From positions 312,001-376,000 of the forward strand of contig CM119373.1 of the NCBI GenBank assembly GCA_051294905.1: a DNA stretch of 64,000 nt, in the 5' to 3' direction. This DNA is from Botryllus schlosseri. Taxonomy: Eukaryota. Numbering within the stretch: position 1 is the first letter of the stretch; every line of letters begins with the position of its first letter. This document shows positions 24,663 to 59,735 of the stretch, piece after piece. Both the position numbers and the translations under genes were made by a program. A model generated the notes under the pieces. The model worked only from the letters and a program-made list of their open reading frames with translations. It was not told the DNA's origin and made no database searches.

Positions 24663-25230
24663 TTAAGGTTCTACGTCGACGACACCTTATACAACCTACC
24701 CATAACACAATCACCAGAGCTATCAACCCGGTTACCATCATTATCACAGCAACCGGTTTCAGTGTAGGTATCAGTTTCGCACCTTCCATAATCATCATAT
24801 CGATAAAGTTTAATCCACTTACCTTATATCCACCTTCCATCATCACCAGTTCGTGCAGCCATCGAGTATAGTTGTGGTCAACGAAATCTGTGGTTGTCTT
24901 CCCCACGGTGGTTCTTGATATTCGGGAATACTCAGGAGCGGGTGTTCCCAAACTTCGGGTTTTCTGCCCGGGCTGCGGCGATGTGTTAGCCATCGTTGAC
25001 TCCAAGGTAATATTCATTAGTTCGACACTCTTCGAGGACGAGTCGTCTTTGTCGTCCCCTGTTGAATACAAAACAGTTGTTTCGGTACTTACCTTGCGGT
25101 TGTGGTCTGGGTTTTGGTAGTCCGTTCCGATGTCGGTCCTGCCGTCTTCCGTGGAGTTCTGCAGAGCCTTCGCAGTGGTGACCGGATGCACTCGCGTCGT
25201 TGTAGGTGTTTCACCAATGATTTTCTTCAT
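24663..25230 (-). CDS. Env-like single-pass membrane ORF of the Gypsy element, interrupted by the Kolobok; tail continues 22141 to ~22055
   Basis: Thr/Ser-rich region with N-x-S/T sites (NST, NIT, NTS, NYT), TM VAVIMMVTGLIALVIVLWVGCI, then RCRRRR; removing the Kolobok restores the in-frame tail RTLSRMRNTRRRNGTSQWMAIRVIRNTTEND*. Confidence 0.55.
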
Positions 25231-37782: not shown

Positions 37783-39342
37783 CAGGGTTGCAATGACTCG
37801 AGTCAGACTTGACTCGAGTCATTTTCTTGAAAAGGGAAAATGACTCGACTCGACTCGAGTCAATATTTGGATTGACTCTACTTGTACTCGAGTCTTTACG
37901 CATGACTCGACCCAAGTCATTGACTCGGCATATTTTATATGACTTAAAGATGAAGAAATTTGCGAATCGTACTGGCTAGATCAACGCATATGACGAATTC
38001 TGCCGATATCGCTATTTGTCGCCACTGCTTTCGTTGCACTCGTTTGATATCAGATATGCCGCCGTACAAACAACAGACAATGTCACATATAGTAGCGATG
38101 CATTGTACAAAATCATCCTGTGATGAAGAGGTAATAGATCCTCCGCAATCAAAGTACTCGAAGCTTTTCAATTATACAAGCAAACAATCGAAGCAAAGTT
38201 CAATTAGAGGCAATGAAATGACTCAGATGGTCAAGTACTTGGAAGAGACTGATAAGCTCATGTGTAGATTTGAAGGCGATGATTCTCTGCATTATTGGGC
38301 GACCAGAAATAATGAGTATCCAATGGTCTTCAATGTGGTTCAAAAATGCTTGTCAATTCCTGTATCTAGTGCACCAGTGGAACGTGTTTCAGTAGATGTG
38401 GATTTATTCTAAGGCCATGCCGCTATAACATATATGAGGATCTCCTTTCCACTTTAGTATTTCTGAATTGTAACTCATCATTGATTTGATCAGTGAAAAC
38501 ACACAATACACTCCGTCCATTTGACGTCTTGTTAGGTATGTACATTGTGCACGTGAGTAATAATGAATGGCTAATGTTGTGAGATGTTTGTACAATAGGG
38601 TTGTTCAAAAATAACTTCTTATTTATTTTACTGGGTGGCTACTTGGTAAGATAGTTATGTTGCATAAAAAAAAACTGAATCTGAATTAATTTTAAAAAGT
38701 AGAATCAATGATATGAGAGGAGAAAATTTTATATTTGAAAATAAAGGGAGTGTTTTTGGTGAGAAATTATTTTATATAATTTTATTACATGCTAGTAGTA
38801 AGCCGACTATTTCTTCATATCCGAAATATTCCACTCTAAGAAATTCGCTTTTTCTAGTTGGAATTGAGCCAAATTTGCTATAAATCATATTTTTACACAA
38901 TATAACAATATCATGAGGTGGGCCGGTAAAATTCGAAAATCTCTATTTGTAGTTAATCCAAAATTTCCTCTCATATTAGTAACGCTCCAGCGGCTATTTC
39001 GGAAGCTGAGAAGGAATGCTGACCTTTTTTTAGTCAACCACCTGATAATGTGAAAGAAAAACTATACGTCTACATAAGCACGCATCTGTTGATTCTCTAT
39101 CAGCTGGTATCTAGACGTGAATTCGTTGGTTCTATATCAGATAGCATGTAGAATGAATTCGTTGATTCTCTATAAGCTATAAGCTAATTCAGGATTGAAA
39201 ACATGAGTTGAACATGACTTCAATACTGTGGCTTGGACTCGACTCGGTGATGAATTGAAAATGACTCGACTTGACTCGAGTCAAAACCACAAAAGTAAGA
39301 TTGACTCGTGACTCGGAACAATGTGACTTGGTTACAACCCTG
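37783..39342 (+). mobile_element. hAT deletion derivative carrying the hATC dimerisation domain
   Basis: TIRs CAGGGTTG / CAACCCTG; perfect TSD TAGCCTAC; GACTCGAGTC arrays; SLHYWATRNNEYPMVFNVVQKCLSIPVSSAPVERV at ~38280-38390. Confidence 0.9.
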
Positions 39343-40593
39343 TAGCCTACTCGAGCTATTTGCGACAGGATTTAATAATATTTTGCTGTCAAATTGCTTT
39401 GATATGCACGATTTCCATATTCACAGATTTCCTTGTGTTGTTGTGCGTCGTTGATGTTGTGAACAGGCGGCAACCCTCGAAGAGACGAGACCCGGAGCCC
39501 ATCATTACACCTACGCCCCGTTATTGCTTCGTATAAACGGGAACGCTACAACGGACGGACGAAACGCACACAATAGCTCATTCATGAAAAGTATCCAATA
39601 TCAGAGGCTAACGATGGGAAGCGAACTATATATCATGCCTACATCAATTACAATCGACAATTATATTGAGATATATACCTAGCTGTGATCTTTGACGGCG
39701 GTCGTAGTTCGTAGATCTTTATATGAAAAAGATATACAGAAAAGGATCTGAAAAAGTGACGAGTATGGGAAATGGACACGGAAATGGAAATCACAGTCGC
39801 ATATAGGCAAGTCACCGAAATATCACCATTTGTGAATTCCATTGCGATGGCCGACTGTTTGCGAACCACTGCAGATGTCCACGATGTCCTGGCGATTGCT
39901 AATTGCGTTTTGACTTGAATGCTGAGTACGCGGCAGGTTTACTTCAAATCCGCCGTCCTCTGCTCAATATGGGAGTAAACAGACGAACCATAAAAGTTGA
40001 AATGTATACGGGCTTTTATAAACTACCAATGTAATTAGTTGACGGTCAAGTAACTATACTATTTTTCAGAAGTTCAAGTTTTAGTTCTAGTTGTGGATTT
40101 TGAAAAGTGATTATTCCTAGTTTTGGTTGCACATCTCAAATAATTTAGTTGCTCAGCAGCTACAAATCATATGTTGTTTGACGTGAATCGTGATATCGGT
40201 GTTCTGTTGTGTGATGTTCTTGCAGTCATTGCTAGCTCGTAGTCATCACTACTAACAGTGGCGTATCCAGGGGCAGGTTTTGGGGCACAAGACCCATCCC
40301 TTTGCAAAGTTGTACTTACGAAAAGCCGTTCCAATTCCGATAAACTGAATATTAATGATTTTCGTCGGGATTGAACCTAGTTAAAAGTGTTTTTAAAGAT
40401 CGTTAGTTCTAGTTCTTGTTCTAGTTGCGAGTTTTGAAATCCAGTACGAGTCTGATTGGCGCGCATTCGGTGTCTTTCGCAGAACATTATATCTTCCCAT
40501 GACATTATTTTAAATTGCGGATATACTCAATTCAAATAATTGATATTGAAGTCACGGATAACTTGCATCAGTGGCATTCGATAAAGAAACGCC

Positions 40594-40870
40594 ATGACAC
40601 ACCATCAAGATTCGAATGTTGAAGAATGTAAAAGAGTGCAGATGAGGGTAGACGAAACAAATGACTGTTTCAATAAGATGCATGATATCATTCATCTAGC
40701 ATTAGAGACTGACGAAATGCTTCTCAACCACTCAAAAGAAATATCAAATTCTGCAAGCAGAGACATATTAACGAGGATCAAGCTCCTGTCTGAAAATATA
40801 ATTGCAGAAAGAGACGCAAAGCAGCGAATAGTTGTGGATATGATGCAGATATATGACAGATCGTATGATG
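40594..40870 (+). CDS. Coiled-coil/ZU5/UPA/tandem death-domain gene, coding exon 1 (helical coiled coil)
   Basis: AACGCCATGA start with an in-frame stop just upstream; upstream acceptor TTTCGCAG at 40481; donor GTAAAT, phase 1. Confidence 0.7.
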
Positions 40871-41383
40871 GTAAATATTATTATTATTGTTGGTTGGTTG
40901 ATTGTTTATATTACTGCTACCGTAAGCTGTATACTATTGTGTAAGACCGAATCCACGTCCATTAAACAAATGTTAGTTTATTCGAAGGCGGAACCCGGTT
41001 ATAATGGGATCAAGACTCGCGCAAACCACCAATCTAGTTATTTCACGTTCAACCAACTACTAGCAGTTCTAGTTTTAATTGCGTATATTGAAATGTGAAT
41101 AGTTTTAGTTCATTTTGAAAATCTAGTAGGCTACTCTGTACAAGTCTTATCTATATCCAAAACTGCATCTACGTCCAAAGCAATCTGATACGCTGTACTT
41201 GTCAAACGCGTTGGCACAATGGGAACATACTATAATCATGTACAATAGATGTCAACTTGCTAACCGCCAGTGACAACGACAATGCAGAAGACCTGATAAC
41301 AACAATCAGTTAGATATAATACTGTTATGACGATCTGCTTTGTCACTTCTTGCACAAATCTAGCCTACTTTAAAACTTTTCAG

Positions 41384-41671
41384 ATTATCGACAGGCGCTT
41401 GAGATGAATGAACCACGAGACATCATGCACTTCGGGAATGCATACGTCGCCAGATTTGAAAAACGCCTAGATAAGTGGCTCCCATTCGTAAAGAAAGTTA
41501 ATCCTTCTTACGACAAGCACTCAACAGAAATGAAAAGACTTCTCAGTATTCCACCAAGTGATAAAAACTTCTACAGCAAGCTTTCCGCGGAAATATCTGA
41601 ATATCGTTCCAAGTTGGAGATTGCACACCGAGATGTGCACCTAACGCCTTTTGTAAGAAAATCGCTGCAAG
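41384..41671 (+). CDS. Coding exon 2 (coiled coil, TRIM-BBC-like)
   Basis: TTTTCAG acceptor, GTAAAT donor; 288 nt, phase 1-1; joins in frame as SYD-DYRQALEMNEP. Confidence 0.75.
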
Positions 41672-42417
41672 GTAAATCCGACAAAATATTTCATACATGC
41701 ATCTCAAAATACCGGAGCATCCGAGCTGGATTTTTGGCGAAAATATTACGATGCGAAATGATCCGATTCCACCTATCCAGAGTAGTCTTCGTTCATATTC
41801 AAGTAGCGATAACGTCGTAATTTTGTACCCAAGTAGATGTAGAAGTAGCTACTTCGAAGTAAGTATAAAAGTAGGTACGCTACTCTAGGTCTAATTTTGT
41901 CTAGGAAATTTAAAACTGTCAAAACCGTATGTGAGCTCAGTAACCTGCTCGATGGTACACACATGCAAAACTTTGGTAAGCACTGGAATAGCAATATGAT
42001 ATCCTAGAACAGTCGTTTGTAACCGTTACCAACCTGCCCAACAATCTGCAAGCTTTCGGGAAAATCCACGACCGTCATCATTCGACTGCTGATTGGCCCT
42101 TTTGCCTGCAACAAATGAGGGCTGAGACGGCCTTCTCATCGCAAATCATATATGAGTTGAGTGTATGTCTTAACCTACAGCGCGCCGGTGATAATGGCTC
42201 AGGGAACACCTGCTTGAGAACAACTGCTTTAGAACATAACCTCTGACAATTACGCTTTCATTATCCAAATCGGCGGATATTATCGTTGATCTGTAAGCAG
42301 TATTCATTATACGAATATCGCTAGCGCACGCATGAAGTATCTTAAGTTACAGAGTCAGCTTTTTGACTATATAAAATTAGATCTAAATTACAATTATTTT
42401 TGTTTTTGACCACATAG

Positions 42418-43248
42418 GTTTCGATGCTAAATCCGTCAAAATGGTTCCCCGCGAATCTAGCACGGTTACTATCGGCAAGGAAGCGAAAACGATTGAAGTT
42501 GGAGGATGCAAAGTCAGTTTTCCGGCCGGTACATTTACCGGGGCTCAGCCCGTCAAGATGACGACAGAAATCGACGCAGAAAAGTGGCCTTCCGGGAGGG
42601 AAGCTATCACACCAACACTTTTAATCACCGCTAAAAACTTTCAAAAACCAGCAACAATAGCGTTACCGTCCTGGTGTAGTTTGAAAGATGAAAACGTAGG
42701 CATTGATCTGATGCTGTTCAACGAGGACACGGAAAAATGGAAGGTGATCACGCCGGAGGCAGTGAGAAATGAATCATCTCTAGAATTTCAGTCGGGCCAA
42801 GGCGGTCAATTCATCGCGACTCTGAGGGCTGAGCAGTCCTCTACGGTTACATATGTGGTCCGGCCCATAATCTGTATTAAAAATTCCGAATTCGTGGTGG
42901 CTTTAATCCGCGATATGGAACTAGACAGAGATAAACTGATGGACGACATGAAAAGTAATTTCGGCGACGATTTCATGACGAAAAAGTTTTGCCCGCTGCC
43001 GTGCGCGATGACTCAGACAATCGACAGCTGTATCAAGTGCGTGAAGCCTCGCCAGGGTTTCGAATTCGTGGCGAGCGGAACCTTCTCGCACAACATTGAA
43101 AGCATCATAAAATATGCGATACCGTCGTACGGTCTGTGTGAGTTGGAGAGTGACGCCCCGAAAACGAACGTAACACTCGAGTTTGAACTTCGGGAGGGTG
43201 ATAAGCCGTTGCGCAAGGCAGATTGTTTTCGGTATTGTTGGGAACCTG
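42418..43248 (+). CDS. Coding exon 3: ZU5 + UPA-like domains
   Basis: CATAG acceptor, GTGAGT donor; 831 nt open; ZU5 pattern IGKE..GCKVSFPAGTF..AITPTL..FQKPATIALPSW. Confidence 0.85.
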
Positions 43249-44761
43249 GTGAGTGAAAGCGTTTTTTACTCGATTTTGCCAACTGCATGATATGATTGAT
43301 GAGTATAAACACCCATGGTCTTGGTGGAGAGAGTGTATATACGTGATGTGCGGTAACGTTCATCGTTGGTGGCGTACTGACCCTTTTAGAGTCATATTTA
43401 CCAATTGTAGACCGAAAATGGTAGATGATTCAGTTGGAGACTTGTTTCTTTGGAGATTACCCTTCTTCACACACACGCTGTAAAAAGATACTACGCTTGA
43501 ACAATTAAAGGCGGATATGTTTGAAATATGCATACCAGCTACATCTGTGAGAACCTATATTTTCTCTGCACTAAACATTGGTCATCGAATCTACACGATT
43601 CATGCTATCGTATGTTTGCGAATATGACAGCGTCTCCTTTATCTTAGCTGGGATTGAAGGATTGCTAGCCAACAATGAGTAAAGCTAATTAATCTGTCCG
43701 TCACCTGATTGTTTTTTTTGGCGCTGTCATTGTAAATAACAACCCCCCATTTCGCGATTTTGTGGGGGTTTTGATGCTCTGATATTATCTATTTTTAGAT
43801 TTATGGAATTAGTTCAACAATAGCATTTTATGAATACCAGTAATTATAAGTGCTGAATTATTTTTCGCTATCACAAGTGAGGCTTGGCTTGTCTGTGCCT
43901 CGCCTCTTCATTCGCACTCTATTTTTAATCAATAAACATTCAAATTCCGTGAATTTGGGTGTAAAAACGTTCATAATTTAGTCATTCATGAACATGAACA
44001 TCGATACGACAAATGAGACACTGCCTCACTTTCCCCACTGACCGAACGTTACTGGTGTGCATTCGCCCTCAAAAGGTGATACATGAAAATTAGCCCCACC
44101 TCAAAGTTCAGAAATCCTGTTCCCGGGGTGCCGATCGATTATTTAAACGGACTTGTTAGCGGCTGAACATGAACAGTCTGCTTCCATTTAGAGCCGATTT
44201 GGGCAAATCATCATGATCAATCGACGTTTTTCTTTCCCTGTATGTATTCAATCGCTACTTCGCAAGTTGGATTTTGATGAGTAGGATTTACACATCCCCT
44301 CTTTGTTATTAGTATCATACTGCGTCCGAATTAATGCGTCCTTTATGCATATTCATTAGTCATAGACACAAGTGCGATGTTAAATTGCTTCATGTAGCTT
44401 GTAGTTAGTTTTCAACGTCCGCATTTGCCTTTAACCATGCAATTTTATCCAATCTTAATTAATTGCGTATTGTTATAGTTAGTTCTGCTTTCCTCAATAA
44501 GCAACTAGACATCTTAAGTAATCAACTGAATTCCATGAATCTTTGGAAATAACATACGTCTTTATAAATGCTTGTCAGTCAGCTTGTGAATATTAAGGCC
44601 TTGGAAGCATGGGCGCACCAAAATCGTTAGTCTCGATTACAAAGTATTCCTCCGAATGACCTCGGTTTAGCTTTAGATTATTGCACATGTCGCTGCAACA
44701 GTGTCAAGCTACTTTTAGCGTTTAGCGACTGCATCTTATCACAAGGCTGGTATTATCGCAG

Positions 44762-44971
44762 GTATTGTGGTGGAGAATACAAAAGACCAAATTGAAGAAA
44801 CCTTCGACGATATATCATCATGTTTTATTAACATTGAAACATTTCGAGTATTTGCGATTTCTAAGAGAGGATTTGGCCTTACTGACACCCAATTGGCGAA
44901 GGTAACAGATGACCACACGGAAGACTATAAGCAAAGAAGATCCATCCTATAACTATGGCGTAAGAGGAAAG
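44762..44971 (+). CDS. Coding exon 4: death domain 1 (in-frame TAA at 44950-44952)
   Basis: CGCAG acceptor, GTAATT donor; 210 nt; FRVFA..GFGLTDTQLAKVTDDH..RRSIL*LWRKRKG. Confidence 0.75.
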
Positions 44972-45744
44972 GTAATTTAACATTGCTGGAGATTTGTGAA
45001 GCTGATTCTACCATCTGCGTATAGGAATATAGTATTTTCTAGTCTGACAACTGATATCTCAATCAGATCGTTCACTAGCTGATCATGTTTCTAGTCGGGA
45101 CAGACTTGTACAAACTACGTTAATTTGAAAATGCGCAACGAGATCTAGAACAACTGATTTTTCAAAACTAGAACCTGAACTACTCAAAAATCCAGTATCT
45201 AGTTTAACATCCACTAACAAGATTGATATTATGTTACGAGTCTGAATCAATGGCCTATAGTGATGTGGAACATTGGAAAAGTTCATGGGCAGCGCCTGAC
45301 ATCCCTCCGGCTATCATGCTGTTTACAATGATTGCTTCATTGCATGTATTCTAATCAGTTCAGAGAAAATCAATGTCGTAAATATTTTGCAATGGCGTAA
45401 ACAACGTTGTAGGAATGTTTTACGAATGATCGAATATCATGCGGATATTTAACCGAGATATTCAACTGAATTAAAATCCGCTTTATTGACGGTTCTAGAA
45501 AACCGTACTGCATATTGAAGAGTAAAACATAAATCAGTATACCAAGTCCTTGATGAAACAGGCACCAATGGTAGCCTATACCGACGATTTGAAGATCTTA
45601 ATTACCGTCAACCATATACTTTCGACTGACATTTGATTCGAATTATTATGTGCATTTCATCATTTCACACGCATTCAACATGTATTTATTAATAAATGTA
45701 GACAAGTCTCGAATAAATAAAAATCGATGTATTTTCGCGTTCAG

Positions 45745-45822
45745 GGACCGATGCTACGGCCAAGAAATTGCGTGAACTGGTTGACAAGTATTTTGCCGGA
45801 AAACATGAACTGCTACATCAAG
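45745..45822 (+). CDS. Coding exon 5: end of death domain 1
   Basis: TTCAG acceptor; TDATAKKLRELVDKYF; weak donor GTTGGC (read-through would stop at 45845); 78 nt, phase 1-1. Confidence 0.7.
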
Positions 45823-46156
45823 GTTGGCAATTCCATGTGGCCTGAGGTGCAGTCCCACTCAACTGTGACATACACAAGTTGACGCCTTTAACACACTGCA
45901 TATTGGACCACAGGCATTCACGAATGATAAAATCTTGAAAAACTACAATAAATTATAAATATACGAATAAGACCACATCATAAAGGAAGGCGTGTCTAAA
46001 AAAAGGTTGAGAACCACTGTTCCAGCCACATCGACAATTAATTGTTAATAAATAGCGAATCGTGTAAAGAAAGTGACATGCCTTTGATAGACCTACATGG
46101 AAAGTTGTTGACAAAGCTAATATTACAATACAGCACATGTGCCGATGGCTCGACAG

Positions 46157-46776
46157 TAGGGCTGTTCAAAAATAACTTTTTTTCCTGAATCTTGCTGGTT
46201 ACTTGATTAAATCGTTAGGTTGCCTTAAAAAACGACGCATACCAAATTTGAATTCATTCCGACAAATATTCGCGGGTTACGTAGAGTTTGAAAATTTTGG
46301 ATTTGCCCAAAAACGCAAAAGAAAAAATTTCTCAAATTTTTTTGCCAACCCCATGAAATTGTTGGGCTGTCTTCAAAACCTATGCAAAACAAATTTGACT
46401 CAATTCCTAGCTGTAGAACCGGAGTTATTTCAGTTTTTATTCGAAAATTCTGGGATTATCCTTGATTGGTGGATAATCCATGAATTATCACCGAAAAACT
46501 GGAATAACTCCGCTTCTACGGCTTGGAATTGAGTCAAATTTGTTTTGCATAGTTTTTGAAGACAGCCCAACAATTTCATGGGGTTGGCAAAAAAAAATTG
46601 AGAAAATTTTTTTTTTGCGTTTTTGGGCAAATCCAAAATTTTCAAACTCTACGTAACCCGCGAATATTTGTCGGAATGAATTCAAATTTGGTATGCGTCG
46701 TTTTTTAAGGCAACCTAACGATTTAATCAAGTAACCAGCAAGATTCAGGAAAAAAAGTTATTTTTGAACAGCCCTA
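46157..46776. mobile_element. Near-perfect palindromic (foldback) hAT MITE
   Basis: ~290-bp inverted arms starting TAGGGCTGTTCAAAAATAAC; perfect TSD CTCGACAG; related end at ~38597. Confidence 0.93.
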
Positions 46777-49740
46777 CTCGACAGCCTGAAAGCCCTGAAT
46801 AACTATCATGAGGTCATTATGCCATCAACCGATTCAAACCCTTGCAAGAGTTCATTCTTGCTATTTACATATTTTTAATGCAAATTCTTTATGATAAGGT
46901 TGCCATACGTCCGGAATTTCCCGGACATGTCCGGAATTTCACTGTTTTTACTGCGTCCGGTAGGAATTTCGAAAATATGCCTAAATGTCCGGAATTTTGC
47001 AGGCTTGAAGTAAGGTCATAATTTTTTCGTAAATCAACATAAACAAGATTGTTTTTTGGCAGATATACGGAATTTTTCTTCCCGCTGCGCGCGATTTAGT
47101 ATCACATATCCTCGTTTTAATATGGGGACTACCACCCTCGCAAAAACGGCGATAAATAATATAACATAGCATTTGTTACTGAAATAAGTCTAATTGTAAT
47201 CGCAATTACAAGGTAACGGTATATTCATAGAGTCGGTTGAAGCCGTTTGGATGCTTTATTCAAAGATAGTTTACCTTTATTCTGGGGTTTGCGAAGATGT
47301 TAAACTATAGATAACTAACCTACGGATAGATACGCAACACCCGTCGTCACACTTGCTTGCCCGGAGGTGATTACTGCTCAGCAATCTGAACGCAACATAA
47401 TTTTAATTATAACTGGCGACACGGGTGCTTAAATTCAACAAAGTTGATCTTATTTGAAAGCAACTGTCGCACTGATTCCGAAAATATACACATTAAAATC
47501 GAATCAGGGCAATGGAACCCCCTTGAAATACACCTCAAAGTATGAAAATTGGCATTGTTCTGAACAATCGCAACCACGCAAGGGCGATTGTTATTGTCAT
47601 TGTGATGCGTCGCTGCGATTGGTTAGAGTTAAGGCGAATTCACACATACCCGGTTCGCACGGTAAATTCGCGCGTAACGCACGTATCGCAAGACTCAATT
47701 CACACATTCACGACTCGCGATTATACGCGATCACTATACGGTAGCCGTGCGACGACCAGCCGGACGTATATTCACACTGCCGCGGTCGATCAACCACGGT
47801 TGCAAGCGGTACACCCTGATTCCATTCCAGTTTGCTATGCCTCTTTTCAACATATTGAAATATGACAGGCCTATCTAAAGCCCAGGTGGTTAGTAAGGAG
47901 TACTCATAGGTTTTGTCTACTTTTTCAATAGGTTGTGTTTTATATCACTTCCACGCAACAACATAACTAATCTACTTTTTGCACTACTAATCTACTTTTT
48001 GCACTTTGGAATATTTGCACCTATTTGTAGTGTCACAGGTCAGTTTGCGATAGTCACAAAGATGCACCCTGCAATTTAAAAGTGACCACCTCTGCTAAAA
48101 CTATTCGAGCCATCAACCAAATCGACTATTTAAAACTACTTGATCACCTTTCATTTCTTCATTTCCTACACTTGAAGTAGTTTCCACGTGTCTCTGAAAT
48201 TGCTAATACTACTTGAAGGCGAGTAAAACTTTACAGCAATACTAATGTATGAGTAGCAACGCTGAATATTCTGACCACCTTGGATAAATAGTCACCTATT
48301 CCTGATCACTTCAAGAAATCAAGTGTGCCTTACAATACAGAATTGAATTTTCAATCATGTTATGCAAAGAAATGATGAACAATAAAAAGAAATGGTTACA
48401 CTTGAAAGCAACATTTGCAAATAGAGAATGCATACATTTGAAGAAAGAAACAAGAATAATATGCAATACAACGGTACCAATTAAATCGATGCAGTAATAA
48501 TCATAATAGACAAAACAGTATGCATGATATAACAGTGCTAGTTTTCAACTGGTTGTGATCATAAACTTGGACAAGTTTGCATAATGTCCTTCATTATTGC
48601 AGCAGCACACACAGCCTCCGTTGACTCGCAACTGTGCCGCCATAAAGTTCGCAAAATGATCATATTAGTCCAGCGTGCAGAAAACTGGTCAGTGCTCTTA
48701 TGTAGAAACTTTATCATCTCACCCTGAATAAGATATAATTTATATGTTACATGCATAGCGTGAAAAGTCATACATCACAGCTACACCTACCTGCATCAAA
48801 TGTCTGTCATCATAGTATCTTCGCTCTTCCCTGGTAATTGTCTGCCAATTGTAGAGTTCAATGATGCGTTGTTGGTGGATGCAAAAGATGACGTAGCAGT
48901 GCTGGTTTACACATCAGCTGGTTTCACATCATTTGTCTCTGGCAGTGGTGTCTAAATCCCAGTATTAAAACATTTGAAGCTTATTTTACAGCAATGCCTT
49001 TGAAATTTAATATGCCATAAGGAATTTTACTTCATGCAAAGATTCACCACAATTCACAATATCTGATGTTGTCACTTTAACCAATCATTGCTTCATCTTA
49101 TTCTGCTGCTGTAATCAAACTATCAGAGTAGTGAACTTTTTCAATATCTGGCAGGTTGGCAACAGTGATAGACAGACGAGTATGGTCAACAAAGAAGCTA
49201 AAAATTTATACTTTATCACGACCTATTCTCTGCGTTGGATGCGAGACACATTTTCTGCTAGTATGACGTCCTATCTTGTGCAAATGCAGCATTTCAACTA
49301 GGAGTAAATGAATATGTTTCCCCCTTTCCCAAAAATTGCTCCTCGAAGTCGACCATCGGGTTTTCACTTGCCCCACTGAATGAAATTACAGCAGCAATAC
49401 TGAAATGAATATTAGAAATGAATGGAAATGGACATACCAGATGTTTGCAGTACATCAGCAATTGATGTTGATGTAGGCTGTCATGAACAACTGCCTGGTT
49501 TTTTACTAGTGGAAAGGATTATAGAGTACAATTTCTGTAAACAGATGTAGTAAGATTGAAAAGACACCATTATGTAGTAAAAATGCATGCATCAATATAA
49601 TATGTAGTAAGATTGAAAACACACCATTATGTAGTAAAAATACATGCATCAATATAATATGAATCTGAACTCATCTTAGTTGATAAAATGAAATAGTGTT
49701 GCAGGAATGAATTAACAGCTTCTATCAACTAACTATAAGT

Positions 49741-51766
49741 CAGTGATTCCCAAGTGCGGCCCCGAGGGCCGCATGCGGCCCCCAGATAGCCTTCCTGCGG
49801 CCCCCAACATATATTAAGAAATCGATTTATGACAAAAATAAAATTTATATTTGTAAAATACTCTTGCTTGGCTTGACCTATGTGGTTTTTAATTATAGAA
49901 TTGCAGGAAAGTTGTGAATTGTGAGTATCGACTGCTAACGTTATGTCACTGCTGTTTCAATGCAATGTGCCCCAACTTTCCAGTTGAACGAGCAGTAGCT
50001 ATAGATATAAATAGGTATTGATAACTTTCAAAACCGGAGGAAAATCTCTCCCTCGTGGTCGCTTGACTGAAAAAGAAAGAGGCTCAACTCCCGGAAAATA
50101 CAGTTTTTCTTTCACATTAACAGGTGGTTGACTGAAAAAAAAACTTCCAGGTCCAGCTCCGAAATAGCCGCCGTATATAGCGTTCCTACAGTGCTGACTT
50201 GATGTATATCAGTCGAAGTTGGCCCTATGTAACCAAAATCCTCAAAAAAGAAGACATTTGGGCGTCCTCCGAGGACACTTTAAAAAAATCAAAAAAGAGG
50301 ACAAATCATCTTAAAAGAGGCCGTATGGTAACCCTATGATAACTAGATGTGCTACACGTTACTCACGGTTGAATACGCCGAGATGCATACTGCTTAGTCG
50401 GCTAAAAGCAGCATAATTGGTAGTCCTATATTCAGGGCCGTAACTGCCGCACCCCAAACCCCCCAATTGAGGGGGCCGAGCTCGAAGGGGCCCAAAATTA
50501 TTTCGTGAATTGGCATAAATTATAGGGTATTTTTTGAAAATTTATGCAACTTCTTAAAAAATTTTTCGCGCTGGGCGCGATTTCAATTCGCCGCATATCT
50601 TGATTATTGGGTACTCTTCCCCAAGAAAAAATACGCAAGATTTATAGAAATGGGCATATCAGCGTTGGCCATGACCGCACCACAACGCACCGAGACATTT
50701 AAAGTTTTAGGCCATGTAACATGTGACTCCAATAAGTGAGAACGATCGGCAGCGAGAAAGCCATGGCCGTAAAGGACTGCTTTTATGCTGACCAAAAACT
50801 TCGAAATACCAAAAACTTCGTTATATATACAAAATACATATAGGTTTATTTGTCCATATAGGCGCCTAAATGACTGGCGCCGAATGTTCTTGTCTTGGCA
50901 ATCTGAACCTATCAAGATAAATACCATCCCGCAGGAAAGAAAATTACATGCCAGCGAAGAAATACCAATTGATCTGAAATCGTGTGATCTTCCAGTTTAG
51001 TAGGTTTGGGCAATTCTACATTTTTTGATATAGCAGACAGGATGTCACGGAATAACATTATGTGAAGAAGTCATACCTAGGGGTCTTCCCGCCCGAAGAT
51101 GTTTAATTTTATGGGGTCTGCAGTTTCAAAGACACTCAGCTCTACCGGTAAATTGGATTACGTGGGCAAAGACGACAACCACGCAATTCCCGATCTTATT
51201 CACCGTCTTTATCATGAATTATCGAAATATTCGGGCGTCGCGCTGTCTCAATAAACAGTACAACTTTAATTTCGTGGCAAAAGCGTACAACGTCATGCGG
51301 GGTCAGTTTATCACCCTATGGGAGCCCGGGGTCCTGACGAAGTGCCGTTACGTTCCAGCCAACGGGTACCCCCGGATATGTTTAATTCCTATTGAGGGGG
51401 CCTATACCTTTACAAACACACCTCACTCAATCAATCAGATTACGTGAACAGAGACAAGATGAAAATTGATAGCAATACATGCAATTCCCGATCATATTGA
51501 CCGATTCAGTCATGAAACTAAAGAAATTTTTCGCGCTTGGCGCGTTTAGACGAGAAAATCTGATTCACTCAACAGACACCCAATGCAGCAGATAAGTAGC
51601 GGTAAACGGTGTACACTTTTGGAACCTCGCCAGGGCAATAAAACTACTCCGAAATAGCCATTGTGACTGTTTGGGTCCGTTTCATAGCCATAATATTCGT
51701 GCGGCCCCGACCGTAATCTGAAATTCTAAATTTGGCCCTCACACCGACAAAGTTTGGGAACCACTG
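49741..51766 (+). mobile_element. hAT-Charlie-type element inside the Harbinger
   Basis: TIRs CAGTGATTCCCAA / TTGGGAACCACTG; GCGGCCC motifs; perfect TSD CTATAAGT. Confidence 0.9.
50433..51610 (+). mobile_element. Family A hAT copy, 3'-truncated
   Basis: Starts CAGGGCCGTAACTGCCGCACCCC; colinear with 46-2357 without the family B insert. Confidence 0.8.
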
Positions 51767-54417
51767 CTATAAGTACTCATTTGCTACATGATAATCACAT
51801 TACAGGACATGGAATTCTAGGTTAAAATGTCAAATGCAAATAATTAACATCAACTACGTATATACAAGGATAACAAGGTTATGAAATGACTTGTAGCAGT
51901 CCTTCAATCAGACACACACATTGAACCAGAATAAGTGAATAGCAGGCAGCCCTGTGATCAGTGATCACAAGCAGTGATTTATCAGGTATGCAGAAAACAG
52001 ACTGCTGTAGAAACACGTGCAGCTGAGTCAGCCTGATCGCAATATCGTTGCCAGACGCAAAACACTCATCGCATAGTAATATAGAATAGCCACAACTGGC
52101 GAGTATACAAACAAAACGACTGATTACTACTGCAGAGTGCAGATTACTGCATGGCAGTACCATCACCAGTACCGGCATGCCGTCTGGTACGTATCTACAC
52201 ATCCTACCGGTAAACTCACCTTCTCATATCACATATTTTTCGTACAACCAATATACACCCTGAACACAACATAGAAGCACTCAATAAATTCATCTCGACA
52301 AGCTGCTAAATCCATAGGAGCACACTTTCGACTGAGCTCACGGCAGCAACGATAGCCACGGAAAGTTCGTTTGATCCAACTTTCCGTACGGCAGCAAAAA
52401 AGCGAAGAAATCGACCGTACGATAGCCGTAGCGACAGCCGCCGTGAACGAATCGTGCATGTGTGAACATTTCCACGGCAAGACGGCCTGTTGACCGTACG
52501 ATGGAAAACCGCGCGGCAAAAATCGTGGCCGGGAACCGTGCATGTGTGAATTACCCTTTAGAACAATGCCGATTTTCAGACGTTGAGGTGTATTTCAAGG
52601 GGGTTCCATTGCCCTTATTAGATTTCAATGTATATTTTCGGAATCAGTGCGACAGTAGCTTTCAAATAAGATGAACTTTATTGAATTTAAGCACGCGGGT
52701 CGTCAGCTATGGGATTAGCAATTATGTTGCGTTCAGATTGCTGAGCAGTAATTACCTCGGGGCAAGCACGCGTGACGACGGATGTTGCGTATCTATCCGT
52801 AGGTTAGTTATCTATAGTTAAACGTAATCAGCTTCCAAAATAGGCTGTGAGTAAGTCTGGGCAAATTTGCCGACCTTTAATTAGTAGGCCTAATCAGCTG
52901 GGCCACGCCAAGTTGGAAATGGAGTCGCGACCATAAAAGGTTGTAAACTACCGGATGTGCGGTCTTTATGTAGCTCAGTGGTGTAATGCGCACCCGCATT
53001 AGGCTGATAAATAATCTTATCGGTGCATGTGACATGATCATGAAGAACGCTACTTGCATTTTCGAAGCCATCATCCTCCACCAGCTCTACCGCTAACTCT
53101 GATCATGTGGGCGGAGAGAGGATAAAAATTATATAGTAATATATGGAAGAACCAATGTTATTGACATAATTCCACAATACGCGGGGATATAGCGTTTTAG
53201 CATAAGTGGTGACAATAAGGGCTCTCTAATCGGGCGGTCCAGGTGCTTATCTGGGCTCATCTTTCCCCGCCGTAAAAAGCCCAGAAAAAGATCCGGCGAA
53301 AGAAAGCACTCACAAGGAATAGAAAGAACTAGAAAGGGCCGCGGCTTCAAAAATATCAACATCAAAAAGAACTGTGACGTCGGGCACTATAGGCATGTAT
53401 CTGTTCATTGCAACGCATTGTGTCTTATCGCATTGTACCGTGTGTGTCTTGTTCTGGTAAAAAAAAGGTCCTAACGAATAATTATTATCATTATCGATTA
53501 TCGAAGAGGATTAGTATTCTGCACTTTTCAGTAATTCATTCAAATCATGTACGACCAGATGCATAGCCTAATAGTAAGCCCCCAGAAGTTGCATCGATTA
53601 CCGTACGGTGGGCCGATCAGTGTTTATTGTGCGGGAGGGGGCTGAAAAAATGTGACTTCGGCCCTGGTTACAACTTACAACTCACAAACACATACTCCTG
53701 ATCAGGATCGTAACCACCTCTTGTTGATAGCCAAAGCCTTTCTGGTGTGACGTCATATTGATCGAAATGTGTTCATACCTTATTTAAAATTCGCTAGTGG
53801 GCGCTAAAGAGCGTCCGGAATTTGGGTTACAAATATATGGTAACCCTACTTTATGACTAATAAATAATAATAAAAATAATACCCGAGAAAACATTTATAT
53901 GGTAGATCGGTGTACCATGACACGGACTGGGTAGGAACAACTGATCCTAATTACTTAATTCAATTCAGTTCATTGCTAAAATTTTTATCATTTCATTACC
54001 CCACAAGACTGCGCTCCAATGAAAGAGAGGAAGGTCTCGAAACGACTTGGAGTAGTCTTCGAAATCAGACACCCACCTGGCCTATAGGCGATGTAAAAAA
54101 CGAGGCATGCAGACTGAATGTAAAATAAAAGCATATAATATATAAATACAGGTGATAAAAAAGGTGGCATGTGTATGTGTCGGAAGGCGAGATCGATATG
54201 TCAGGTAGTAGTCCTAGACGTCTAACTAGTATTCATTCATTAATATTAATTTCAAGAACGATCTAAGTGACGAACTATAGCATACGAATGGCAATGGGGT
54301 CCCATTTTAGAACACAGCATATTAGAGCGAAGACGAACATTATAACACGATGGAAGTGTTAGTGATGTAATTTACACCGAATCTCGAGGATTTCTTTTAT
54401 TTCATCACCAACTGCAG

Positions 54418-54609
54418 AGAAAGAGCGATTAGAAGACGCATTCACGGACATATCCTCACGTTTCTCAAGCGCCCAAGAATTCGGAAAATTTGCGTTTGCC
54501 GGTTCCGGACTCGGCTTAAGCTTTGTGGAAGTAGACGAAATTAAGAGCGACAATGCAAGAGAACTCGAGAGAAGAGTTGCTATGGTTCGACTCTGGTCTC
54601 AAAGAGAAG
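54418..54609 (+). CDS. Coding exon 6: death domain 2 (intact; absent from the ORF track)
   Basis: CTGCAG acceptor after a pyrimidine tract, GTTACT donor; 192 nt; KERLEDAFTDISSRF..FGKFAF..GLGLSFVEVDEIKSDN..RRVAMVRLWSQREG, paralogous to exon 4. Confidence 0.8.
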
Positions 54610-54869
54610 GTTACTATATATTTATGATATCTATGAACTATATCGCCGAGCCGATGCCTGGTTTATGGTTTAGTTAGGGCTTCAGGCATTGTCGTTAATG
54701 GGTTTTCTACCCCGACAACCAGAATTGCACAAACTAGCAATCTAGTCGAGTCAGTTAGCAACTACTGTTATTTGAGTAGTGTAGTTCTGGAAGGTGATTA
54801 ATTGAGTAGTAGGCCTGCTATAGTTCTAATGGGTCATTTTAAGTAATTCTAGTTCCCTAAGAACTAGCC

Positions 54870-55690
54870 CACTGGTTCTCAACCGGGGGTACGCGAAGCA
54901 TTTTCAGGGCGTCCGCGAAACCACCAAATTTACAAAATGGTTGATGACCTAATCTTTACATTTTTAAATAGGAGAAATTACGAGACAGTTGTGCTTCATA
55001 ACTGCCAAAACTTCATAACTTACATGAACAGAATGGTCGTCTGATATGAAATAATAAACTTTATAAAAATTCCAAATTGCCAATAGCCTACTGATACAAA
55101 CATATTGCTGTTTAGAGATGTTTTGTTGGGGTTTTGGAAAAAAAATTGTTTGCAAAATTCCATTTTCTCCATTGATTCCATTTTCTCCTGTGATATGCAT
55201 AATCGCTATTCCAAAATAACCAAGATAACCTGCTAGATAGAAATGGCTAGGATGGACGTTATATGTTCACTATAAATCAGGTTCCCAATTTTGATGTTAT
55301 GTGTTGCGATCACACCCAAAGGTGTCGTCCGAATCGTTGCGCGATATTATTACGTTCGCCACTACCTCTCAGTGTGGAAATGTATTTTCGGCACTCTTTC
55401 ATATCAAATAGACGGCGTGGATGTCCAGGACATGGCCGCATATTTGAAGAAATATAGCTACAGACTTCGCTTCCAATTCCTTACCAATTTCTACATAAAC
55501 AGTATATGCTATGGTTTTATTTTCAAGAATGGTCATTTTGTTGCGGTTTATCACTAACCTACAGTTGATATTTACACACATGCACAGGACACGAAGATGG
55601 TGCAAAAATTAAACTAAAACTATGGGGGTGCGCGGGACTCCGTGACGGTCCAAAAGTGGTCTGCGAAGACAAAAAGGTTGATAACCACTG
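54870..55690 (+). mobile_element. Family B Charlie-type element in intron 6
   Basis: TIRs CACTGGTTCTCAACC / GGTTGATAACCACTG; perfect TSD AACTAGCC; colinear with 810-1851. Confidence 0.9.
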
Positions 55691-56194
55691 AACTAGCCTA
55701 CGTGTTTGGAGTGATTCGTGATACCGGTGTTCTATTGTGTGATGTTCTTTCAGTCACCACTAGCCCAGAATCACCACTGCTAAAAGTAACGTAGCCAGGG
55801 AGTCAAACGCATCCCATTTCAAACTTGAATTAACGTTCATGTGGAAAACCGATCCTAATCCGATAAAAGAAGACTTCATAATTGGGTCTAGTTAACTGTG
55901 TTTCAGTTAGTTAGTTGTGGATTTTTAATGGTCGTTAGTTATAGTCATAGTTGCGATGCGATCGAGTTTTAAAAAGTGAATAGTCCTTTTTCTGATTCTA
56001 GTAGCGAATTTTGAGAACGCAGTATATATTGAGCAGTTGAGCACGCTGCTCGTCGGATCGGATTTACTGGGTTCCAATAAAGTTATTTTATTAGGCGGTC
56101 GAGAACAATAGACTGATAAATCTGCCCATGTTATTTGCGTAATTTCCAATTTCTTGAAAAACTTCAAACCATGAATCACTTTTTCATCTTTCAG

Positions 56195-56265
56195 GGGAAA
56201 GAGGAACACCCGCGAATTTACGCAAGCTTGCCGATCAGTATTTCGACAGTCAAAAATCTACATGA
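56195..56265 (+). CDS. Terminal coding exon 7: end of death domain 2
   Basis: CATCTTTCAG acceptor; ERGTPANLRKLADQYFDSQKST*; paralogous to exon 5. Confidence 0.78.
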
Positions 56266-56282
56266 ATAAGTTTGGAAAGTTC

Positions 56283-56288
56283 AATAAA
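56283..56288 (+). terminator. Candidate polyadenylation signal
   Basis: AATAAA shortly after the exon 7 stop codon. Confidence 0.45.
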
Positions 56289-56385
56289 GAAACCTTCGCA
56301 TCCAATATTTCGGGACGTATCTTCTTTTTCGACATCAACCTGCAACTTCTGAATTCATTACACTATAGTCACAACTAGTGATAAT

Positions 56386-57360
56386 CAGTGTTGGGATCAA
56401 GTCACTACCTTCGAGTCACGAGTCATTTCATTTCGAGTCATTGCACATTTTGACTCGAGTCAAGTCAAGTCGATCGATTTTCGAAGGTGACTCGAGCCAA
56501 GTCAAGTCACTCGGTTTTTGGAGGTGACTCGAGTCAAGTCAAGTCAAGTCACGAGTCAAGTCACAATTCAAGTCAAGTTCCTTTTTCGAAGTATGAGGCA
56601 TGTTTACGTCATCGCATTTTGCTAGCTGTCTGAAACACAGATTGAATGGTCATTAATTTTCAAACGATAGACGAATATAGAGTTACATATACACACAAAA
56701 AGGCGCTGTATCACTCATATATACGTTGAACTGATAAACTACGTAAGTAATTGCATAGCCTCAGTTTATAGTTATCAGCCAAAATAGAGAATAGAGAAAC
56801 GAATTGAACAGATGCAATAGATTACCAGCTTACAAATTGATATGATACAATTCGAGCCTGTGTCAATAATTGAGGGCTATATAAACTATATTCGAATTCA
56901 ATTTCAATAAGACAAGAGGTTTGGTTAAGGTCTGAACATAGAGCAGAAATAGATATTTTGCTATTAAATTACTTTACTATATTAGTTTACGACAACGTAA
57001 GCTGTAAGCTTCGATCACTTCGTTCGCAGCCAATTTATTTGTGACAGAATAATGGAGGCACAGTAAAACGCACGATCATTGAATTATTGGTCGTTCTCAC
57101 GGGCTACATCAGCGTTTCGCGAACAATCCGAACATATGCAAGATACAGTGATTTTTATCGGCACCGATTACTTGATGACTTGAAATTGACTCGTGAATTT
57201 AGCTCCGAGTCACGAGTCAATCCACATTTTTGATACGCCGAGTCAAGTCAAGTCAAGTCAAGTCATTTTAGCAAAGTGACTCGAGTCAAGTCAAGTCATA
57301 CGAAAAAGGTGACTCGAGTCTGACTCGAGTCAAGTCATGACTCGAGTCATCCCAACACTG
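56386..57360 (+). mobile_element. hAT non-autonomous element with GAGTCAAGTC arrays
   Basis: TIRs CAGTGTTGGGAT / ATCCCAACACTG; perfect TSD GTGATAAT; related fragment near 32912. Confidence 0.92.
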
Positions 57361-58089
57361 GTGATAATTCATTGAGACATTGTCAAGAACTCAACAACCT
57401 CGGTCATCCCATTACTGCAATTTGAAGCAATGTCTCACCCCGTTAGCAAGTTTGTCCGAAACGCAATCTCAATAACTGAATTGTATTCAACATAGGAATT
57501 TGGTAGTAGCCGTAGCAGTAGCATATTTATCGGTTGTACGTTTTTGCTGTATAATAAATATATCATTTATCACCGATTAGTGTGTATAGCGCACGACTAC
57601 GCATAGGTTTCAAGAGATACTCAATTGCCGCGTGATAAGACACTGCGCAGAATTTTTCATAGATACCTCAAAATGCTTGTTCAAGCTTTAGCAATACTAA
57701 AAACGACTGACGAATAAATATCTTATTGGTGTAGCTACAAATTGAGCAATAATATTCATCAGTGCAAGATACCCTGAAAGTGCCAGTGATACTGATAATA
57801 TGGTGACCAAGTTATGCGGGGTGTTTCAACAGTCAACAGTTTCAGGTCTGCGTCAGCATTAGAATCATCAGCCAATAAATGGAAATTGTATTCTATATAA
57901 GATGTTAAGGATATAGCAGTTCAGAATTAATCATCATTTTGATATTTGAAAAGTAAATAATTTTAGATTACAATAACTCGAACTCTGACTAAATGATCAT
58001 ATAGAATATATCCAGAAATGGCCAGTTGGCCACGTGTCAATAACAGAGTATCAGCGGAGGAAGTACCTAGTTGGAGTAGTTACGCAAGT

Positions 58090-59735
58090 GGTTATGTTTG
58101 TAGACTAACTTCCTCTTCTACTAGAACGCTTTCAAGGCAAAACTGTTTACTTTTAACAAATTTGGATCTTGAAAAGTAGGAAGTAGTTTTGCAACAAATT
58201 AGCGTCATTTTTAAAAGTGAAATTGCCAGATTCGCGTGAAGCAGCATGATTTCTCGTTTTGTTTTAAATAGAAATAGTTTGGGTGCCTGCAATCACATCT
58301 TAAATAGACATTGAACTTCTCTGTTGCTGAGATACTTTTTGCTGAATGGGAATATTCAAACCAAGATTTTTTACGAAAGTGAGTATATTCAGTCAAAATG
58401 AATGAGCGCCAGAACAAGAAGTAATCGAAAAACAGCAGAAAGTGATTATTTATACGTAACATGTTACGGAAATGGGTTCAAATAGGCATCAGCTAACTTT
58501 CCCGAATTATTCGCTTCCTGCCTCACCTTCTTGAGGACACTTAGGGACGGCGCATCGTCACGGTTTCCAGATTGATAAACATCCTCCGGTATTTTCCCAA
58601 GATAATGCAAGTAGGTCTCGCGAGGTTCTCCAGTTCTCATGATCTTTTTGAACTCTAATCTGCGATTTCGGGAGAGCCTCGTCGACTTGATACCAACATG
58701 AACGATTTTCCCGGCAAAGAAAACTTGAAATCTGCGCGGATTTGCTCGGTGACATAGAAGTTTAATCTTGCCGTGGCACGATTCGAACGTGCATTTGCCG
58801 TAACACACCAGGACATGCTTGGAGTGAAGTCCGTTGAAATTGTGTCGTTTGAAAGCGTAACTACAATAGGGATTGCAACCCTTCAACCCAGCCCGCACGA
58901 TATCGGTCCATGTGTTCAATGTTATGGTCCGGCCAACGACGGATTCGGAGATCGACTTCCAGTCGTGGCGAGATATCTCAAAGGAGCGTTCGTTTGGCAT
59001 ATTTTCACCAATCCAGACTGGCCTTTCTTCGAACGGGTGATACATGACTGGACTTGAATTTGAGTGCACCCCAGAAGGGATGTCAAGGTCCTGAACGTCC
59101 AACGTTTCTGGCTGGCCTCTTCGGTCAGTACCTGGCGTACTAGCAGAGTCTCTATCTTTCAAACACGTAGTTGCTTCATGACCTTTACATGGTGGATAGT
59201 TTGATACTGTTTTATTTGAATTATTGGTATCATCCACTTCCTTAGTAAACATACATGTATCATGATCGGAAAGGATGCTTTCATGCGATGGATGAAGATA
59301 ACCCTCCACTGTGCTATTACCAGCAGTATTCACGTCGATGCACACTGTTGTAATTGGTAATCCAATCGCAATATCCATATCGGCAGTATCATCCGAACCA
59401 GTGCAATCAACATCACTGATTGACTCGACATTATCTGATTGCGGGCCAATCTCGGTTAACTTGGCCAAGATCTCAGCATTGCGTTTCTCCCAAAAACCTC
59501 TTCCTAATCTCATTACGTTTCGCTTATCTTTTTTGGAGAAATTACGATAGCCAAAGAGGTGTTCCACGATGAAATTCCAGAACCCGGGTACTTTGACGTC
59601 ACTTGCGCCGAACGCGTGCATTGCTTCAGCAAAATCGCCGACATTGAACATCGTAGACCTCATATCAGCACTATATAGATAAATCGTCGTCAAATCAATT
59701 GATATACCAACGCTGGAAGCAGAAAGAGGAGACAT
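58090..59735 (-). pseudogene. Mutator-like (NOF-type) transposase N-terminal part; 423-aa open frame followed by frameshifts
   Basis: W..I..WTD..NPYCSYAFKRH..GKCTFESC..H..R.SR.RR..GNRD..VLKKVRQE resembles my recollection of NOF-FB/MULE N-termini; a degenerate YLD..G follows at ~58300. Confidence 0.6.

Follow-up and report, generated by a model that had tools for sequence, protein, structure and literature searches.

What kind of protein is encoded between positions 40594 and 56265 of a 64,000-nucleotide stretch of Botryllus schlosseri DNA, and is the gene there intact and in use? The stretch, called the window below, is contig 3, positions 312001-376000, of a 495.5-Mb assembly (GenBank GCA_051294905.1, contig CM119373.1), and the genome-wide searches described here cover that assembly. 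An earlier note, made from the letters alone, had proposed at this place a seven-exon gene with a ZU5 domain, a UPA-like domain and two tandem death domains. On balance, and with considerable reserve, we believe that the locus is a real ascidian gene, transcribed and lineage-restricted, and that it encodes a cytosolic death-fold adaptor with the following layout. An orphan N-terminal region of about 187 residues would be followed by an uncleaved ZU5-UPA module, by a first death domain and, most likely, by a second death domain that is shared with a neighboring gene (gene N, below). That the gene is real and expressed we consider highly probable.

The gene model was rebuilt from the sequence. 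The seven exons are joined through GT..AG borders at 12 of 12 splice sites, every intron lies in phase 1 and the total length is 1947 nt, in full agreement with the earlier note, whose quoted peptide motifs were also found at their places (10 of 10). Its count of 648 codons plus stop has to be corrected: an in-frame TAA stands at codon 529, and the frame is open for 528 codons in this assembly. An in-frame stop lies three codons 5' of the ATG at 40594, and the 5' untranslated region extends to at least 40481 in an RNA contig. Paralogues of exons 1, 2, 3, 6 and 7 were found elsewhere in the genome, and exon 4 is single copy in the whole assembly. A scan of 36001-64000 for further death-domain or ZU5-UPA exons gave none besides exons 3, 4 and 6. 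The features of the gene are as follows.

40594..40870, plus strand: exon 1, ATG and 92 codons, start of the orphan N-terminal region; GT donor; present in RNA contigs.
41384..41671, plus strand: exon 2, 95 whole codons, second part of the orphan N-terminal region; AG and GT borders, phase 1; exon 1-2 joint in RNA contigs.
42418..43248, plus strand: exon 3, by its model a complete ZU5 (about residues 10-128 of the exon peptide) and UPA (about 130-276); supported by Foldseek; RNA contigs over 42496-43208.
44762..44971, plus strand: exon 4, first two thirds of probable death domain 1; covered in runs X1, X7 and X9.
44950..44952, plus strand: in-frame TAA, codon 529, inside exon 4, context RRSIL*LWRKRKG.
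45745..45822, plus strand: exon 5, last third of probable death domain 1; weak GTTGGC donor.
45947..45952, plus strand: AATAAA, 125 nt past exon 5; candidate alternative 3' end, from sequence only.
54418..54609, plus strand: exon 6, first two thirds of probable death domain 2; its open frame offers no ATG ahead of the domain.
56195..56265, plus strand: exon 7, last third of probable death domain 2; TGA stop at 56263-56265.
56283..56288, plus strand: AATAAA, 18 nt past the stop codon, a putative poly(A) signal.

The central module of the protein is encoded by exon 3. Its peptide (276 residues) had no Pfam match at E <= 1, ZU5 (PF00791) included, and none of the seven exon peptides reached a Pfam cut-off. 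A profile of the 31-member family, run against PDB sequences, found no ZU5 chain and one unrelated row at E 0.27. We therefore describe the module by its predicted structure. An AlphaFold2 model of exon 3, made with a 31-sequence alignment, has a predicted local distance difference test score (pLDDT) of 92.7 and a predicted TM score (pTM) of 0.87. Foldseek placed the cytoplasmic domain of UNC5b first (3g5b, E 7.4e-13, TMq 0.70), then the ankyrin-B ZU5-ZU5-UPA-DD tandem (DD, death domain), and then the FIINDs of NLRP1 and CARD8. The same four were ranked alike by VIA-align, with Z scores of 19.4 for UNC5b (root-mean-square deviation 3.1 Å over 255 residues), 17.8 for ankyrin-B, 16.8 for NLRP1 and 16.5 for CARD8. 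Model residues 11-274 align to UNC5b 542-828. Residues 10-140 align to isolated ankyrin ZU5 domains (Z 12.3-13.7), and residues 130-270 to the C-terminal fragment of NLRP1 (chain residues 1214-1350). By the fold of this model, rather than by Pfam, exon 3 is a complete ZU5 domain with UPA directly after it. The ZU5 and UPA-like assignment of the earlier note is thus borne out by fold and not by Pfam.

The sequence relatives of exon 3 give a transitive link to ZU5. An exhaustive search of 1.84 billion representatives returned 36 proteins at E <= 0.001, the best of them 48% identical to exon 3. Pfam was run on 23 of the 36 and found ZU5 in 3, NACHT in 4, caspase in 1, kinase plus RNase 2-5A in 1 and no family in 12. 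In two of these relatives (P0027 and P0029) PF00791 lies exactly where they align to exon 3. A word-based search for longer relatives of exon 3 gave none among 805 candidates.

Is the module cut between ZU5 and UPA? According to PMC3210808, self-cleavage of CARD8 and NLRP1 takes place at an SF/S motif where ZU5 ends and requires the second serine of this motif, and PIDD and Nup98 have HFS at the corresponding place. In exon 3 the motif falls at model residues 127-129, because the NLRP1 fragment begins at model residue 130. This column holds F-S or F-C in 21 of 31 aligned family sequences, 12 of the 21 being from the same genome. It reads Q-G-G in the studied gene, E-G-G in its paralogue B (below) and E-S-G in the closest foreign relative (P0001). 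The studied gene has neither the Phe nor a Ser/Cys nucleophile at the ZU5/UPA junction, and no HFS. With QGG at the motif no autoproteolysis is predicted, as in UNC5b and the ankyrins. Its ZU5-UPA module is thus predicted from the alignment to be uncleaved, having lost a self-cleavage motif that most of its relatives keep. Exon 3 has at least 41 matches in its own genome, 4 of them with stops. In a subset of 17 aligned ZU5-UPA exons from this genome (among loci L002-L020), 12 keep H/N-F-S or H-F-C at the FIIND cleavage position; the family member at L013, for example, retains HFS. To judge by these motifs, the ascidian probably has many self-cleaving ZU5-UPA proteins.

What follows the module in the gene model? 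Exons 4+5 and exons 6+7 were described earlier as two paralogous death-domain units, and this description is supported: the two units share 27 of 86 aligned residues (31%) in a script alignment, and both are tied to death domains by the profile and model matches of their relatives. In the genome-wide search with exon 6, six places were found at E <= 0.01, exon 4 among them (31% identity, E 1.7e-4). Pfam gave no match to the exon 4 peptide, and with exon 6 alone Death (PF00531) reached 12.8 bits (E 0.14) with a cut-off of 22.6, which is weak. The fold was tested on a paralogue, L027 (contig 7, 12503928-12504116, minus strand), which has the whole domain without an intron and is 47% identical to exon 6. 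The L027 open reading frame (ORF) scores 22.6 bits with Pfam Death, equal to the curated cut-off, and its PDB sequence matches at E <= 10 are death domains in 6 of 6 cases. Its AlphaFold2 model has a pLDDT of 87.0 and five helices. Foldseek gave no match to this model at E <= 0.001 (best E 0.044), but only death domains occur in its first 25 listed rows, at TMq 0.45-0.67.

A profile of six exon-6-type sequences was also compared with PDB. Death domains made up 21 of its 22 rows (best E 0.012), including those of Fas, RIPK1, FADD, TNFR1 and PIDD, and the odd row was a polcalcin. L027 and the N-terminal death domain of a Styela protein (P0031) can each be aligned with the whole length of both units of the studied gene. 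Exons 4+5 and 6+7 are thus probable death folds, each assigned through its relatives. The presence of a death domain C-terminal to UPA on the same polypeptide is put forward as a candidate arrangement, with the exon 4 donor apparently used and the reference allele carrying its stop at codon 529. An ENA sequence from another data set, P0047, is the window's exon 6 in unspliced form and reads into the intron.

Several observations on related loci were made along the way. L027 is an intronless gene that ends in a death domain of the same subfamily, and orthologue-like ORFs (P0045 and P0046) occur in two other Logan data sets. A death-domain hidden Markov model was run on the 1.5-kb flanks of 19 other family loci and gave no convincing match (best E 0.024). 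On contig 2, a ZU5-UPA module that is 41% identical has one weak death-domain-like ORF upstream (E 0.0068).

Is the gene transcribed? Contigs of three runs from different studies (X1, X7 and X9) and a raw RNA run (X19) were compared with window positions 38200-57800. X1, X7 and X9 carry the labels 'RNA?' or '?' on record. They were treated as RNA because of the behavior of their contigs: some are spliced from exon 1 to exon 2, and in all three runs the unique intron bin 43432-44085 has depth 0, with the bins of exons 3 and 4 covered. The exon 1-2 joint is present in X1 record 2 (from 40481) and X9 record 17 (from 40496), which run to 40869 and resume at 41383, with one ambiguous base. The second piece of X1 record 2 stops at 41669 with 134 more letters beyond, and this fits use of the exon 2 donor. 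X7 record 11 stops at 44969 with 197 more letters beyond, as expected if the exon 4 donor is used; within 44845-44969 it differs from the window at two positions. In X1 record 7, another 92 letters precede the part that begins at 56193, which fits use of the exon 7 acceptor. Each of these three contig ends is two bases off the predicted border, the pattern of an exon-end AG meeting an AG acceptor. Exons 1-4 and exon 7 are therefore represented in RNA contigs. X9 record 19 (44499-44765) is unspliced and ends 4 bases inside exon 4. About 13/100 of X19 was read and gave nothing on 40816-45393, which has no bearing on expression.

Joints farther downstream were sought in the same runs. The 15 of 165 joints listed are all at repeats and include none between exons 2-3, 3-4, 4-5, 5-6 or 6-7 and none from exon 3 to exon 6. 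X7 has depth 0 at 56231 (exon 7) despite its coverage of exon 4. Low-depth gene joints are masked in the read tables because of high-copy repeats. Dense repeats of this kind fill 45998-54300 and 56386-57800, in the 8.6-kb intron 5 and the 3' flank, where depths in the RNA contigs range from hundreds to thousands. Among these repeats are an inverted pair at 46153-46776 and, from 56420 on, a satellite of the GAGTCAAGTCA type.

Two neighbors of the gene bear on the question whether exons 6 and 7 belong to it.

Contig 3, 378917-381755, minus strand: gene N, just past the window end (loci L025, L030 and L033).
Contig 3, 501589-452357, minus strand: paralogue B, with exons 1 and 2, three chimeric fragments, exon 3, an exon 5 remnant and an exon-6 copy.

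Gene N, which is convergent with the studied gene, has copies of exons 1 (57% identical), 2 (63%), 6 (86%) and 7 (82%) only, within 2.9 kb. It would thus consist of the orphan N-terminus and one death domain without ZU5-UPA. Exon 2 of gene N has to be joined to the exon-6 type without an exon between, as the shared phase 1 permits. Paralogue B has an intact exon 3 (76% identical), an exon-6 copy (65%) and an exon 5 remnant with stops; no exon 4 or exon 7 was found in it. The long second intron of B contains three repeated open frames of 87 codons (L035-L037; contig 3, 462341-462550, 481291-481500 and 487287-487496, minus strand). In each of them the first 47 residues of the ZU5 exon are fused straight to the last 33-34 residues of exon 2, and they look like recombination scars of tandem duplication.

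The ZU5-UPA-DD1 block is thus present or absent between corresponding flanking exons of neighboring paralogues. Because exon 4 is unique in the genome and B keeps an exon 5 remnant, the order exon 3, death domain 1, death domain 2 predates the split between the studied gene and B. Exon shuffling is supported by these neighbors, as far as their gene structures go, and insertion or loss of the block would both fit. The phase-1 exon shuffling that had been suggested for this locus therefore gains support, since the modules are visibly rearranged and gene N consists of exons 1, 2, 6 and 7 only.

The ratio of nonsynonymous to synonymous change (dN/dS) was estimated by the Nei-Gojobori method in scripts, on 63-276 codons. 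The ratio is 0.30 for exon 3 of the studied gene and B (dS 0.46) and 0.21 for exons 6+7 of the studied gene and N (dS 0.36). Exons 1+2 give 0.52 against N, and against B exon 1 gives 1.3 and exon 2 gives 0.81. By branch, exon 6 has a ratio of about 0.33 in the studied gene, about 0.10 in N and about 0.52 in B. No copy of exon 1 or 2 other than the studied gene's own was found upstream of exon 6. The constrained exons 6 and 7 therefore need the upstream exons of the studied gene for their translation. B also keeps its exon-6 copy downstream of exon 3, which fits exons 6 and 7 as part of the studied gene, and we consider that they probably are.

The gene might instead consist of exons 1-5, with exons 6 and 7 as the leftover of a partial duplication of an N-like gene, outside any productive transcript. 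An 8.6-kb repeat-rich gap does separate exons 5 and 6, similarity to gene N at the DNA level is not confined to the exons (79% over 387 nt, 84% over 163 nt), and the joints listed include none to exon 6. However, a leftover of this kind is hard to reconcile with the low dN/dS against gene N (0.21), the absence of any stop or frameshift and the intact splice sites. The 92 letters upstream of 56193 in X1 record 7 fit a spliced exon 7, and B keeps the order exon 3 then exon-6 type. We regard this explanation as very improbable.

The two death domains could also be alternatives to each other. In this case transcripts would end in exon 5 or would skip exons 4 and 5 for exons 6 and 7, and no protein would carry both domains. 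Because all introns are in phase 1, skipping of exons 4-5 keeps the frame and both forms are in frame. The exon 5 donor GTTGGC is weak, the frame stops 7 codons beyond it if it is unused, and with AATAAA 125 nt past exon 5 this exon could be terminal. The coverage of exon 4 and zero depth at exon 7 in X7 would fit such an end. Both neighbors show a comparable structure: B has exon 3 and then the exon-6 copy with only a decayed exon 5 remnant between, and in gene N the exon-6 type comes right after exon 2. On the other side, neither an exon 3-6 joint (among the 15 of 165 joints listed) nor a poly(A) end past exon 5 was seen. GTT-type donors are also used elsewhere in the family, with GTTACT in exon 6 of the studied gene, GTTTGG in N and GTTTGT in B. 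Alternative ends without a tandem protein are thus unlikely, although they carry more weight with us than the leftover explanation. The two putative poly(A) signals, after exon 5 and after the final stop, allow either a tandem protein or two one-domain isoforms. To the tandem, with both death domains in one protein in intact alleles, we give slightly less than an even chance.

What does the TAA in exon 4 mean for the gene? Alignment to the modeled paralogue L027 places the stop within helix 4 of the death domain, a long one, and ahead of the final helix. Without skipping of exons 4-5, the reference allele would yield a product of 528 residues. A protein search with the death-domain alignment found P0044, a 90-residue ORF of a 1855-nt Logan contig, which agrees with the window frame from 44770 at 84 of 90 positions. 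P0044 has Gln at the place of the TAA and reads RRAILQLWRKSKG. Of its five further differences, one is the start residue set by the caller, three are amino-acid changes and the last puts a sense codon where the window has a stop in the intron. Since it continues past the exon 4 donor into the intron, it must come from unspliced DNA or pre-mRNA, and since exon 4 is single copy in the assembly, it represents an allele or the orthologue of a very close species. The TAA is most likely a recent nonsense change of this assembly's haplotype and thus allele-specific. An internal exon 4 donor, AAG/GTAACA (44901/44902), by which the stop would be bypassed, was considered and rejected: it is in phase 0 and mismatched to the phase-1 acceptors, and X7 record 11 reads through it.

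The same stop might be the first visible lesion of a transcribed pseudogene, the whole locus decaying like B. B has lost exons 4 and 7 and has stops in its exon 5 remnant, and stops also occur in 4 of the 41 genomic family matches. Further, exons 1+2 have a dN/dS of 0.52 against gene N, and all coding differences between P0044 and the window's exon 4 (4 of 4) change the protein. A decaying locus is, however, at odds with a single disabling change in 1947 nt and 12 intact splice sites out of 12. A sense codon is present at the place of the TAA in another sample, the dN/dS estimates are 0.30 (exon 3) and 0.21 (exons 6+7), and spliced RNA occurs in runs of three studies. We judge a pseudogene improbable.

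A number of these results weigh against our reading of the locus as a death-fold adaptor gene with the layout given above. Exon 3 has no Pfam match, the Pfam Death score of exon 6 alone is weak, and both death domains are assigned through relatives, death domain 1 being without a direct library match. The joint to exon 6 is missing among the joints listed, X7 does not cover exon 7, and the AATAAA past exon 5 offers an earlier end. The reference allele itself is broken by the TAA, and the source of P0044 may be a sister species rather than another individual. Paralogue B, with exons 4 and 7 lost and an N-terminal dN/dS of 0.8-1.3, indicates that the cluster is partly decaying. The dN/dS values have a small basis in codons. 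The mechanism proposed below is inferred from UNC5b by fold likeness alone.

The N-terminal region in exons 1 and 2 comprises 187 residues and is rich in charged residues. It matched no Pfam family, and a comparison with 43 collected proteins gave no match (best blastp E 0.37, a Logan protein). For exon 2, the best ESM Atlas score was 0.87, below the threshold of 0.9 for more than a lead, and a word-based search of the protein collection for longer relatives gave none among 60. Three copies only of exons 1-2 exist in the genome, those of the studied gene, gene N and paralogue B; exon 2 is full length in all three (63% identical in N and 60% in B). In a crude periodicity script, exon 1 has no Pro or Gly and a weak periodicity of 3.5 residues, and exon 2 has six prolines and amphipathic segments. 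The orphan region is likely to be helical, as judged from this composition, and the coiled coil that the earlier note saw in it is no more than a candidate. The highest Kyte-Doolittle mean over 19 residues is 1.4 (residues 334-352) and lies inside UPA, with no membrane segment in the model. The Pfam searches on exon peptides and the hydropathy profile thus agree with the earlier view that the protein has no membrane helix, RING or B-box.

How might such a protein work? By analogy with UNC5b, the uncleaved ZU5-UPA module would keep the death domain next to it closed and inactive. An opening driven by a signal would free the death domain or domains for homotypic assembly, and with no cleavage motif this opening would have to be conformational. 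The N-terminal region shared with gene N is a candidate for self-association or for pairing with N.

Three other open frames, all on the minus strand of the window, were noted. A 424-codon frame at 58464-59738 lies between the studied gene and gene N and has no Pfam match at E <= 0.01. A 297-codon frame at 7584-8477 contains an ANTH domain (PF07651, E 6.8e-45) and probably belongs, as one exon, to a gene for an endocytic adaptor of the HIP1 or CALM type. A 249-codon frame at 24496-25245 lies in the most G+C-rich part of the window (0.46-0.48) and has no Pfam family; in it, a stretch rich in Ser and Thr precedes a hydrophobic segment and a basic run resembling a stop-transfer signal.

ZU5-UPA modules govern death-fold assembly in netrin-receptor apoptosis, in the PIDDosome and in the NLRP1 and CARD8 inflammasomes, and sea squirts are the closest invertebrate relatives of vertebrates. 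The studied gene is compact and has no cleavage motif, an orphan N-terminal domain, a short partner gene nearby and a natural null allele. It thus offers a simple setting for the question of how an uncleaved ZU5-UPA module restrains a death domain. The cluster is a clear local example of domain gain or loss via symmetric phase-1 exons. A bolder view, which we hold to be doubtful, is that the three clustered paralogues represent phase-1 shuffling in progress: a ZU5-UPA-DD cassette would have come to lie between the N-terminal and death-domain exons of an N-like adaptor to give a tandem-DD protein, with working and null alleles still segregating. If this were true, the segregating alleles would be those expected of a fast-evolving immune or self/non-self gene near a chromosome end.

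How does the gene compare with known systems? UNC5b (3g5b) is the best structural match to exon 3; its ZU5/UPA junction is uncleaved, as is predicted for the studied gene, and a death domain comes after UPA. UNC5 is, however, a type-I receptor, and its Ig and Tsp1 domains and its membrane helix have no counterpart in the studied gene. The studied gene, for its part, has the orphan N-terminus and a possible second death domain, and its sequence identity to UNC5b is 11%, with no Pfam ZU5. UNC5CL (ZUD) is described as a short protein that is essentially the ZU5-UPA-DD supradomain without the UNC5 ectodomain and that retains a transmembrane helix and autoproteolytic activity (PMC10084454). Its domain order matches the one proposed for the studied gene, which differs from it in having no membrane helix, QGG at the motif, an orphan N-terminus and perhaps a second death domain.

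The FIINDs of NLRP1 and CARD8 share the ZU5-UPA fold (Z 16.8 with 7crw_A and 16.5 with 7jn7_B). The studied gene differs from these proteins in having QGG, probable death domains instead of CARD, and no NACHT or LRR (leucine-rich repeat). By its sequence at the cleavage position it is not a FIIND in the functional sense. PIDD1 resembles the proposed protein in having ZU5-UPA and then a death domain, and the PIDD death domain is a weak profile match (2of5_H, E 1.7). PIDD1 itself carries LRRs, a pair of ZU5 domains and two sites of HFS cleavage, whereas the studied gene has one ZU5, no LRR match and no HFS.

The only named sequence relatives are uncharacterized proteins of Styela clava (XP_039247777.2, XP_077965983.1, XP_077972327.1 and others); all 10 named relatives of exon 3 that were looked up are of this kind. 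They differ from the studied gene in that their identity to exon 3 is 36% or less, so that none is a close orthologue, and in that the module is accompanied by NACHT, by caspase, or by kinase plus RNase 2-5A. XP_077972327.1 (P0031) starts with an exon-6-type death domain (E 1.2e-15 to the profile; 34% identical to exon 6). Its order is death domain, ZU5-like module (E-F-S at the motif), protein kinase and RNase 2-5A (KEN) domain. In the literature searched we found no paper on such ZU5-UPA families of ascidians or tunicates or on such death-domain families of Styela clava.

The earlier note had called the architecture one that it did not recognize. This was overstated, because the protein would present the known ZU5-UPA-DD supramodule behind an orphan N-terminus, in a family with at least 41 matches in the genome. 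The supramodule was already known; what is new here is the orphan N-terminus on a ZU5-UPA module predicted to be uncleaved, perhaps with two death domains. The studied gene is thus an unusual member of a known ZU5-UPA-DD kind and not a new kind of system.

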